From an uncultured Gemmatimonadaceae bacterium (GTDB lineage: Bacteria > Gemmatimonadota > Gemmatimonadetes > Gemmatimonadales > GWC2-71-9): a stretch of 64,000 bases of DNA. The notes beneath the pieces were generated by a model. The model did no database searches, had not been told where the DNA came from, and saw only the letters and a program-made list of their open reading frames with translations. The translations under genes and the position numbers were made by a program. Position 1 is the first letter of the stretch; each line of letters begins with the position of its first letter. The stretch is taken from contig CAYGBV010000017.1 of assembly GCA_964348295.1 (NCBI GenBank), positions 6,736 through 70,735 on the forward strand, read 5' to 3'. Shown here piece after piece: positions 3,257 through 64,000 of the stretch.

Positions 3257-3364
3257 GCGGGAAGCGGGAAGGGGGAAGCGAGTCAGGCTCCCGATAGGCG
3301 GGTTGCTTCCCGCCTCCCGTTTCCCGCTTCCCGATTGGCCGCACCGTTCCCCGTTCCCCGTCCC
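3257..3364. repeat. heptamer-repeat inverted element, copy 1
   Basis: Left arm (CGGGAAG)x3 at 3257-3280. Right arm (CTTCCCG-like)x4 at 3305-3333; its outer 13 nt are a perfect complement of 3258-3270. A (CCGTTCC)x2-3 array follows at 3344-3364. Lies between the DUF302 and amidase genes. Confidence 0.85.
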
Positions 3365-62776: not shown

Positions 62777-63361
62777 TCACCCCTCCCAGCGGGGCACGAG
62801 ACTCGCCTCCACCCCCATGTGGTCCAGCACGCGCTGCACGATGAAGTCCACCAGGTCCCGCACCTGCTGCGGCCGGTGATAGAACCCCGGGGCAGCGGGA
62901 ATCACCGTCGCACCGGCCTCGGTGACGGCCGTGAGGTTGCGCAGGTGAATCAGTGAGAGGGGCGTCTCGCGGGGCACGAGGATGAGCGGCCGCCGCTCCT
63001 TGAGCGTCACGTCAGCGGCACGCTCGATGAGTGACCGGCTGTTGCCCTGAGCGATAGCCGATACCGTCCCCATCGAGCAGGGGCAGACCACCATGCCGGC
63101 GCTCCGCGCCGAGCCCGACGCGGGGGTCGCGCCGCGGTCGGCGTTGTCGTACGCGGTGATGCTCGACCAGTCCCCCCCCGTGGCCTCCCTGAGCTCCTCC
63201 TCCGAGCCGATGCCGGTCTCGGTCTGAAGCAGTCGCCATCCGTGGCTGGAAACCACGAGCATGAGCGGTACCCGGTGCCGGGCCAGCACTTCCAGCAGGC
63301 GTACCGCATAGGGCCCGCCGGAAGCGCCGGTGATCCCGAGGACCCAAGGGACGGTCTTCAC
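62777..63361 (-). CDS. ubiX: flavin prenyltransferase UbiX
   Basis: GTG start. WVLGITGASGGPYAVRLL...MVVCPCSMGTVSAIA...ERRPLILVPRETP. Confidence 0.93.
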   Translation of the reverse strand: MKTVPWVLGITGASGGPYAVRLLEVLARHRVPLMLVVSSHGWRLLQTETGIGSEEELREATGGDWSSITAYDNADRGATPASGSARSAGMVVCPCSMGTVSAIAQGNSRSLIERAADVTLKERRPLILVPRETPLSLIHLRNLTAVTEAGATVIPAAPGFYHRPQQVRDLVDFIVQRVLDHMGVEASLVPRWEG

Positions 63362-63398
63362 TGGCCTCTCCTGTTGGGGGTAGGGACCTTGTGCGGGT

Positions 63399-63568
63399 GC
63401 CGGGGAGGGCCGGGAGGGGCGGGTCCCTTGGGGCCCTTGGGGAACGGGGAACGGGGAACCGGGAACGTGCCGCCCTTCCCTTTCCCCGACTTGCGCACCG
63501 GCTCGCTGCGGCCCCGCCTCGAACGCCGACCGGTCTTACCGTTCCCCGTTCCCCGTTCCCTGTTCCCC
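63399..63568. repeat. heptamer-repeat inverted element, copy 2
   Basis: G-tract run from 63399. Left arm GGGGAACGGGGAACGGGGAACCGGGAACG at 63439-63467. Right arm CGTTCCCCGTTCCCCGTTCCCTGTTCCCC at 63540-63568. Arms are 27/29 complementary with a 72-nt spacer. Lies between ubiA and ubiX. Confidence 0.9.
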
Positions 63569-63569
63569 T

Positions 63570-64000
63570 TCATGATAGTCTATCCCCCAAAGCAAAGAGG
63601 AAGACAACTATGCTCATGATCCCGTTCATTCGAAAGAAGGCCGCGTCGAGCCGACGCAGGTCACCCGGCCTCACGAGTTGATGCTCCCAGGCGAGGATGG
63701 CCGCCGCCAGCGCCACGCCGACGTAGTACAGCGTCCCAAACGGCGTCCCCACCGCGAACGCCACCAGCATCACAATGGTCACGCCGTGGAGCAGCTTGGC
63801 CGCGAGAATGGCGCGACGCTGGCCCAGCAATACCACCGCGCTCTTGAGGCCATGCTCCCGGTCGAACGACTCATCGGGCAGTGCGTAGAAGATGTCGAAC
63901 CCGCCGACCCAGGTAAGCACGGCCAGCGCGATCACCGGCAGCGTCCACCACGGCTCGCTCCAGGTGCCCGTCACCGCGATGTAGCCGGCACCGGGCGCGA
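63570..64000 (-). CDS. ubiA: UbiA-family aromatic prenyltransferase; 5' end lies outside the window
   Basis: The frame stays open upstream of the track's GTG 63974 to the window edge. ...GGFDIFYALPDESFDREHGLKS... is the second Asp-rich motif region. Adjacent to ubiX. Confidence 0.85.
   Translation of the reverse strand, partial: APGAGYIAVTGTWSEPWWTLPVIALAVLTWVGGFDIFYALPDESFDREHGLKSAVVLLGQRRAILAAKLLHGVTIVMLVAFAVGTPFGTLYYVGVALAAAILAWEHQLVRPGDLRRLDAAFFRMNGIMSIVVFLFALGDRLS

Follow-up and report, generated by a model that had tools for sequence, protein, structure and literature searches.

Our analyses indicate that the feature located between the ubiA and ubiX genes at positions 63399-63568 of the window (the whole 64,000-nucleotide stretch of an uncultured Gemmatimonadaceae genome that was analysed here) is probably, with a likelihood that we put at about 0.75, one copy of a lineage-specific, dispersed heptamer-armed hairpin and not a conserved regulator of ubiX. 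Elements of this type consist of two facing arms, with the G-rich strand 5' on whichever strand is read and unique sequence between the arms, and they lie mostly just past stop codons. In terms of class they are bacterial heptamer repeats, represented here by what may be the gene-less form of the arms that bracket S23p genes in this bacterial family. The characteristics that evolution seems to have kept are the period of 7 nt, the length of the arms and their complementarity to each other (an RNA hairpin or a DNA cruciform), and not the G-tracts. The sequence observation made in a first-pass annotation of this DNA is confirmed by the present work, and the interpretation that was offered with it is partly supported. 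The evidence for these statements and their significance are discussed below.

Sequence and predicted folding of the ubiA-ubiX element

The element consists of two arms of 29 nt each (63439-63467 and 63540-63568), which in an inverted-repeat search are complementary at 27 of 29 positions (93%) and stand 72 nt apart. TRF reports (GGGGAAC)x4.1 at 63439-63467 and a complementary array of x4.3 at 63539-63568; hence, the (GGGGAAC)x4 array and its complement described in the first-pass annotation are confirmed by both searches in copy number, in the 27/29 match and in the 72-nt spacing. Read in the mRNA sense (minus strand), arm 1 (63540-63568) is G-rich with about four GGGGAAC units, and arm 2 (63439-63467) is C-rich with GTTCCCC units. 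Arm 1 is followed on its inner side by a polar flank (63532-63539, minus strand), GGTAAGAC in the mRNA sense, which has 1 mismatch relative to the consensus of the family, GGTACGAC. The 72-nt inter-arm stretch (63468-63539, minus strand) is unique sequence that aligns with relatives devoid of arms. In minus-strand orientation, the start of the G-rich arm lies 1 nt past the ubiA stop codon (63570-63572) and the end of the C-rich arm 78 nt before the GTG start of ubiX (63361-63359), both as originally annotated. A second copy of the family is present within the window at 3257-3364 (no strand assigned), where a GGGAAGC-type inverted pair and a GGGGAAC-type arm are found directly past a stop codon.

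Dense tracts of three or more G had been noted on the plus strand at 63399-63467, and this holds, but the tracts number 10 and not about 11, and six of them fall in the non-repeat portion at 63399-63438, which is the complement of Pro/Gly/Lys codons (PKGPKGPAPPGPP) in the conserved half of a small open reading frame (ORF) on the minus strand. The statement that each arm fits the G-quadruplex (G4) consensus is also borne out, the canonical motif being present on both strands with G4Hunter sequence scores of +1.76 (left arm) and -1.86 (right arm). For the mRNA-sense RNA of 146 nt, a fold of -80.3 kcal/mol is predicted (z = -3.7; 0/200 shuffles were equally stable), in which pairing of the arms gives a stem of about 28 bp.

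Several known types of elements do not account for this sequence. The intrinsic terminator reading finds no U-run 3' of the stem, the sequence there being AAGGGCCCC, and promoter-like or terminator-like sites were called neither at the element nor in the ubiA-ubiX spacer. Searches with Rfam covariance models gave no match at the gathering score for the window, the element or five composite loci, and returned only sub-threshold matches to miRNA hairpins. CRISPR was rejected as there are just two copies and these are inverted. An independent assembly of the source metagenome run (Logan) is identical in both flanks (0 differences); the contigs break within the right arm, as is expected for a repeat, and since none spans it the number of units in that arm is unconfirmed by the assembly. 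The sequencing runs that contain the locus are DNA metagenomes only, with no RNA run among them.

A conserved small gene spans the arms

The locus is flanked by the 3' part of a gene for a UbiA-family prenyltransferase (63570-63998, minus strand), which runs off the window, and by a gene for a UbiX-family flavin prenyltransferase (62777-63361, minus strand), which starts with GTG and is preceded by the Shine-Dalgarno sequence AGGAGAGG at 63365-63372. The first-pass annotation had placed the element in an intergenic region, but the whole stretch is covered by a conserved 71-codon ORF (63358-63573, minus strand), whose ATG overlaps the ubiA stop codon (ATGA), whose TGA overlaps the ubiX start codon (GTGA) and whose conserved C-terminus reads HPHKVPTPNRRGQ. 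An ORF of 47-90 codons occupies the same place in 13 genomes, which belong to two families of the order. In 11 of these the start of the ORF and the ubiA stop overlap, and in the 13 genomes its tail follows the motif HP-x-[KR]-x-PT-[PA]-[NS]-RRG-x. When the final 17 codons are compared in pairs within the genus, the differences number 17, 18 and 124 at codon positions 1, 2 and 3, respectively. In view of these third-position-biased substitutions and the presence of the ORF in 13 genomes, comparative sequence data indicate that the ORF spanning the arms is very probably a real gene. We had also considered that it might be spurious, given a codon score of -3.6, a GC2 of 0.68 and the fact that open reading extends through four of the six frames, and this possibility was overturned by the comparative data; a score of -3.6 is what would be expected if half of the 71-codon ORF were derived from the repeat.

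A profile search has identified 26 further homologues with a matching tail, all of them unnamed or annotated as "hypothetical," and no match to the product was found in Pfam or NCBIfam. The gene is predicted to encode a small basic protein of 47-90 aa whose tail reads HPHKxPTPNRRG[QR], and it appears translationally coupled on both sides (loci L006-L017). In one sister family the small ORF is lacking and ubiA and ubiX overlap directly (L018).

The arms lie in frame in that portion of the small ORF which is variable, namely the N-terminus and the middle, and they are predicted to be translated as KGNRERGTGN (arm 1, residues 2-11) and TFPVPRSPFP (arm 2), with the inter-arm stretch specifying the basic middle of the protein. 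The orthologous peptides in G003, G007, and G009 are devoid of the arms. The situation thus resembles the in-frame palindromic elements of the Rickettsia type, viz. a palindromic repeat located in frame within a real ORF, with translation of the repeat as a prediction. Three lessons for annotation are provided by this locus: a small conserved gene occupies what looked like a spacer between ubiA and ubiX, the density of G-tracts there is in part a matter of proline codons, and heptamer repeats can conceal real small ORFs from codon-based gene callers.

A genome-wide family of heptamer arms

The first-pass annotation had proposed a genome-wide search for further arrays, and such copies do exist: the assembly of the source genome (G000; 3.42 Mb, 67.7% GC) contains a family of 166 arms at about 120 loci. 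Among tandem arrays of at least three copies, period 7 is conspicuous in this genome (n = 169, compared with 26 of period 8 and 15 of period 10), and the pattern (GGGGAAC)3 has 65 matches with no more than one mismatch, the reversed control having 0. The units of the arrays are GGGGAAC (61), GGGAAGC (51), GGGGAAA (15), GGGAAAC (11), and variants of these. The most frequent arm length is 30 nt (34/166 arms), corresponding to about 4.3 units of 7 nt, and four tracts of three or more G are present in 83 of the 166 arms.

When the G-strand is read 5' to 3', the arms terminate on their inner side in (GG)TACGAC. The flank TACGAC is found exactly in 39 of 166 arms and with at most one mismatch in 70 of 166, the corresponding values for random 15-mers being 0.4% and 4.4%. 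Neighbouring arms are arranged in the order G..C and not C..G at a ratio of 32:1 (35:1 in a second count). The loops between them start with TACGAC and finish with GTCGTA, are otherwise non-homologous, and cluster at lengths of about 17-24 nt and about 57-64 nt. The two arms of a locus are also matched to each other. The same unit is shared by both arms in 19 of 32 inverted pairs (24% expected) as against 1 of 16 direct pairs, and complementarity of arms within a locus is 18.5 compared with 15.2 +/- 0.8 for shuffled partners, a value of 18.5 being reached in 0 of 300 shuffles.

Location of the arms with respect to genes is strongly biased. The sequence called intergenic makes up about 8.6% of the genome and contains 78% of the arms; these intergenic and genic counts are approximate, as genes were called with a custom program based on codon scores (3,060 genes, 91% coverage). 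The density of arms is 1.15 per kb in gaps between convergent genes, 0.43 between tandem genes and 0.16 between divergent genes, and the 5' end of the G-strand is found at a median of 23 nt past the stop codon. This enrichment past stop codons could reflect selection for function instead of mere tolerance.

Single arms also occur in frame within genes, viz. those for FtsK, AlaRS, the CCA-adding enzyme and biotin carrier, in every case in inter-domain linkers (G000:C46:25001-43973, L045). The AlaRS arm, including TACGAC (Tyr-Asp), is in a region whose length is identical across the orthologues of the genus. Insertion into AlaRS was rejected on this ground, and the constant length indicates that the arm has been rewritten in place toward the repeat. 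A transposon-like insertion was likewise rejected for the family, because at orthologous "empty" sites a hypervariable stretch past the stop codon is seen to be replaced, with neither a target-site duplication nor a clean boundary.

Another dispersed repeat, about 100 nt long and starting with GCGAGGCCGGG, is found at G000:C16:27009-27108 (L001:209-308) and 21 other sites. Its 22 copies share 71-100% identity, 14 of them are located within 60 nt of a heptamer arm, and the usual order is a GGGGAAC array, TACGAC, about 10 nt, a GGGAAGC array and then the ~100-nt module. This repeat has no match in Rfam.

Heptamer units and hairpins in related genomes

The (GGGGAAC)3 pattern is patchily distributed: against the 65 matches of the source genome, its genus mates have between 0 and 15, and it is found in 0 of 16 genomes from the other families of the order. 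Relatives that are without it have other units instead. Genome-wide, G001 contains 36 matches to GGTGCGC, G021 contains 30 matches to GGCTAAC, and G017 contains 53 matches to GGCTAAC and 137 to GCGAAAA. In addition, G024 has an inverted pair of ATTGAAA arrays and G007 has GYGCAAC arrays; for both GYGCAAC and GCGAAAA the reversed control is a rotation of the repeat itself, and hence it is not independent. The arrays of the relatives are built alike, as pairs past stop codons with a conserved inner flank of their own. A higher-order organization is seen in G001, in which GGTGCGC, CCGCCGA[AT], and GGGGAGC arrays form mosaics in a fixed order with units of about 95 nt (L009 1340-1493 and 2365-2466; L029), and arrays of this genome flank ubiX on both sides.

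These genomes provide a natural experiment, as the relatives make paired arms of four units from heptamers incapable of forming a quadruplex, and the hairpin can thereby be separated from the G4. The use of G-tract-free units by sister genomes also weakens a G4 explanation of the preference for four units. At one orthologous convergent locus the arms are of GGGGAAC in G000, of GCGCAAC/GTTGCGC in G007 and of mixed units in G009, and the three hairpins are comparable (-58.5, -53.8 and -55.8 kcal/mol, respectively). The hairpin is thus kept while the unit changes, which points to pairing, and not quadruplex formation, as the shared property; and since the G-tracts are not kept in evolution, the G4 potential of the ubiA-ubiX copy is best regarded as a by-product of the unit that G000 happens to use. 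At a second orthologous site the element is absent in G009 and G003, an unrelated insert is present in G007, and an ordinary GC-rich stem-loop is found in G006. The patchy presence of the element at orthologous sites suggests that the hairpins come and go in a hypervariable stretch past the stop codon.

The ubiA-ubiX locus itself shows the same pattern. A long stem is present there in 4 of 13 genomes (G000, G010, G017, and G019), and the stem of G017, which lies inside the ubiA-ubiX ORF, is made of GCGAAAA arms with no G3 tract. In the closest relatives, G007 and G009, whose UbiX is 91% identical, both the C-arm and a long stem are missing, and a long stem is absent in seven further genomes; in G021 arrays are located upstream of the small ORF and not inside it. 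The absence of the hairpin from this place in the closest relatives makes a conserved, locus-specific ubiX switch unlikely, and from the comparative sequences the element is unlikely to be a dedicated or conserved regulator of ubiX.

S23p cassettes and the absence of RNase III matches

The arms can be linked to genes for S23p proteins (PF05635, "23S rRNA intervening-sequence protein"), which are found in 31 of 41 genomes of this bacterial family, in up to 13 copies each. In all of the sampled cases (8/8) the S23p gene lies between inverted arms composed of 3-10 heptamers. The bracketing units vary from cassette to cassette (L052-L062; G017, G020, G021, G024, G043, G052, G054, G057, and G063). 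In G024 an S23p cassette has GGGGAAC...GTTCCCC arms and is located directly past a stop codon, and in G017 the cassettes have GCGAAAA and GGCTAAC arms, which are the units of the gene-less hairpins of the same genome. This matching of units and architecture in the relatives indicates that the gene-less hairpins and the arms of the S23p cassettes are the same kind of object, and the tie to S23p provides a concrete handle for experiments.

Within the genus, S23p scores above the family cut-off only in G001 and G002. No gene matching the PF05635 profile is present in the source genome, and tblastn searches of it with the S23p proteins of ten relatives gave a best E of 0.015, at a place not beside any arm, so that no convincing remnant was found. 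Since the source genome has neither S23p nor such a remnant, its link to the cassettes is one of architecture and of units shared in relatives and not of homology. At the ubiA-ubiX locus the inverted arms can form a long stem, as in an S23p-type intervening sequence (IVS), but the loop codes for part of the small ORF and there is no S23p ORF between the arms.

Processing of the stem by RNase III was dropped from consideration as searches of this class gave no match to the enzyme. Neither PF14622 nor PF00636 has a match in the source genome; PF14622 is found in 0 of 41 genomes of the family, and within the class PF00636 has a match in none of 46 genomes, of which many are 97-100% complete and some are single contigs. 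PF00636 is present in 14 of 15 genomes from other classes of Gemmatimonadota. Our literature searches found no paper on the absence of RNase III in this class.

Interpretation and alternative explanations

If the ubiA-ubiX feature is a copy of a dispersed heptamer-armed hairpin, the ubiA-orf-ubiX mRNA would carry a stem of about 28 bp starting 4 nt past the AUG of the small ORF. Such a stem would be expected to persist, as no RNase III was found in the class. Were it active, it might, in the generic manner of REP elements, impede 3'-exonucleases or act as a pause site, slowing 3' decay of the ubiA part of the message, and it would tie entry into the small ORF to ribosomes arriving from ubiA. 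A further-reaching proposal, which we regard as tentative and somewhat improbable, is that the heptamer-armed hairpins are non-autonomous S23p cassettes, i.e. widespread, self-propagating and essentially undescribed elements whose arms are rewritten in concert throughout a genome. Concerted rewriting is suggested by units that differ between sister species while an orthologous hairpin persists, by genome-specific repertoires of units and by the overwritten AlaRS linker. If true, a templated or gene-conversion mechanism would be implied and not simple slippage, and Gemmatimonadetes devoid of RNase III could accumulate stems in their operons and even within ORFs such as the small gene between ubiA and ubiX.

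The alternative that comes nearest to this reading is that the elements are selected RNA stem-loops of 3' ends, either REP-like or acting as U-less terminators, which stop or pause transcription or block 3'-exonucleases. It overlaps with the explanation that we prefer and differs from it in invoking selected function instead of tolerated selfish DNA. The peak of arm density between convergent genes and its minimum between divergent ones, the median of 23 nt past stop codons, the excess of complementarity over shuffled partners, the persistence of a hairpin at the orthologous convergent locus despite a changed unit, and the ordinary GC-rich stem-loop that G006 has in place of a heptamer hairpin of G000 all agree with it. 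However, only about 120 loci serve some 3,000 genes, presence at any one locus is patchy even among close relatives, arms also occur singly and inside genes, and at the element there is no T-run past the stem and no terminator-like call; we hold a selected 3'-end function to be a real but minority possibility. That the arms are arrays for binding a protein we consider rather unlikely. A reader protein would fit with the tight arm length of about 30 nt, the polar and conserved inner flank, the physical association of arms with S23p genes in relatives and the genome-specific repertoires of units, which are expected if units co-evolve with their reader; against this, the source genome has many arms and no S23p, several types of unit coexist within one genome, and no candidate protein was identified.

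The first-pass annotation had proposed that a choice between a hairpin and a G-quadruplex/i-motif acts as a switch tuning the expression of ubiX. A part of this proposal stands, as the hairpin is predicted with z = -3.7, the G4 consensus fits and both structures are possible from the sequence; moreover, K+-dependent G4 formation in vitro has been described for the related repeats GGGAATC and GGGGAYT, whose C-strands form i-motifs (PMC4692102). But the sister units cannot form a G4 and yet build the same architecture, in G017 even within the ubiA-ubiX ORF itself, and four G3+ tracts are present in just half of the arms (83/166). With the complement only 72 nt away, duplex should out-compete G4. 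The role assigned to ubiX fares no better: the element is one of about 120 dispersed loci, the nearest relatives have arms that are absent or degenerate at ubiA-ubiX, lacking the C-arm and the stem, and a Shine-Dalgarno sequence of its own precedes ubiX, which is coupled to the small ORF. A switch of this kind is hence quite improbable. Least credible of all, with scarcely any likelihood, is that the heptamers are ordinary low-complexity coding sequence which merely encodes a Gly/Arg/Asn/Pro-rich peptide. The real ORF, its in-frame arms and the similar purine-rich linkers of AlaRS, FtsK, and BCCP would be in keeping with it, but the period, 7, is not divisible by 3, the same units and flank recur at about 120 mostly non-coding loci, the arms are mutually reverse complementary, and the orthologous peptides of G003, G007, and G009 do without them. 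A lineage-specific, dispersed hairpin thus remains the reading that we favor for the ubiA-ubiX feature.

Comparison with known repeat classes

Heptamer repeats have been known from cyanobacteria since 1990 and from Xanthomonas since 2015, and they are still without an accepted function. The STRR sequences of heterocystous cyanobacteria are reportedly dispersed tandem arrays of heptanucleotides that are species-specific and mostly extragenic, with their function said to be unresolved; the family described here differs from them in its units and lineage, and a paired-arm architecture is not emphasised for STRR. REP/REPIN sequences, which are associated with RAYT, are said to be short extragenic repeats that commonly form hairpins as inverted doublets, are enriched at the 3' ends of genes and occur as singlets too. 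The arms of the source genome differ in being tandem heptamers that are purine-rich and neither self-palindromic nor self-complementary as a REP palindrome would be. A RAYT/REPIN identity was rejected, as no match to the Y1 transposase profile (PF01797) was found in the source genome, the control genomes giving matches. The RPE of Rickettsia, reportedly palindromic selfish repeats that lie in frame in genes and are translated in tolerant regions, are alike in being in-frame palindromes; they have no sequence relation to the present family, in which at least one intragenic arm appears to have arisen by same-length rewriting.

The heptamer repeats with the unit TAACTGA, which have been described in Beggiatoaceae, cyanobacteria, and Bacteroidetes, are abundant intergenic arrays of 2-6 copies whose function is unknown (MacGregor, 2015; PMC4679880), and they differ from the present family in being direct repeats with nearly no inverted pairs, located just upstream of start codons. 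In Coxiella, IVS elements bearing S23p are excised by RNase III from 23S rRNA (PMC4990558). The IVS/S23p elements of Coxiella burnetii and the ubiA-ubiX element are alike in having an insert enclosed by inverted arms that can pair as a long stem, and in relatives of the source genome the arms flanking S23p genes are heptamer arrays of 4-5 units, GGGGAAC arms among them. The ubiA-ubiX element differs in that it is without S23p and located in an mRNA and not in 23S rRNA, and in that searches of the class gave no match to RNase III.

The closest counterparts of the family are the GGGAATC repeats of Xanthomonas and the GGGGAYT repeats of Nostoc, which occupy about 180-185 sites per genome, of which some 90% are intergenic (Rehm et al., 2015; PMC4692102). 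These repeats show a preference for four units, form 70-75 convergent inverted pairs, are depleted between divergent ORFs, lie at a mean of 28 nt from the 5' neighbouring ORF, and differ in length and sequence between close species; they form G4 and i-motif structures in vitro, competition with stem-loops has been suggested, and they have no known function (PMC4692102). The same characteristics are found in the source genome, viz. dispersed 7-nt units with G3-4 tracts, a non-coding bias, depletion in divergent gaps, preference for four units, convergent inverted pairs and a G-strand 5' end beside the neighbouring ORF. Hence, the heptamer that the first-pass annotation could not assign to a known pattern has a published precedent, and, judged by its sequence-level features, all of which are shared, the ubiA-ubiX element is a new copy of this class of heptamer repeats (PMC4692102). 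No paper on heptamer repeats of this kind in Gemmatimonadota was found in the literature. The family of Gemmatimonadota is distinguished from the repeats of Xanthomonas and Nostoc by its different units and its conserved polar flank (GG)TACGAC, by sister genomes in which the units are free of G-tracts, and by the location of the ubiA-ubiX copy inside a gene.
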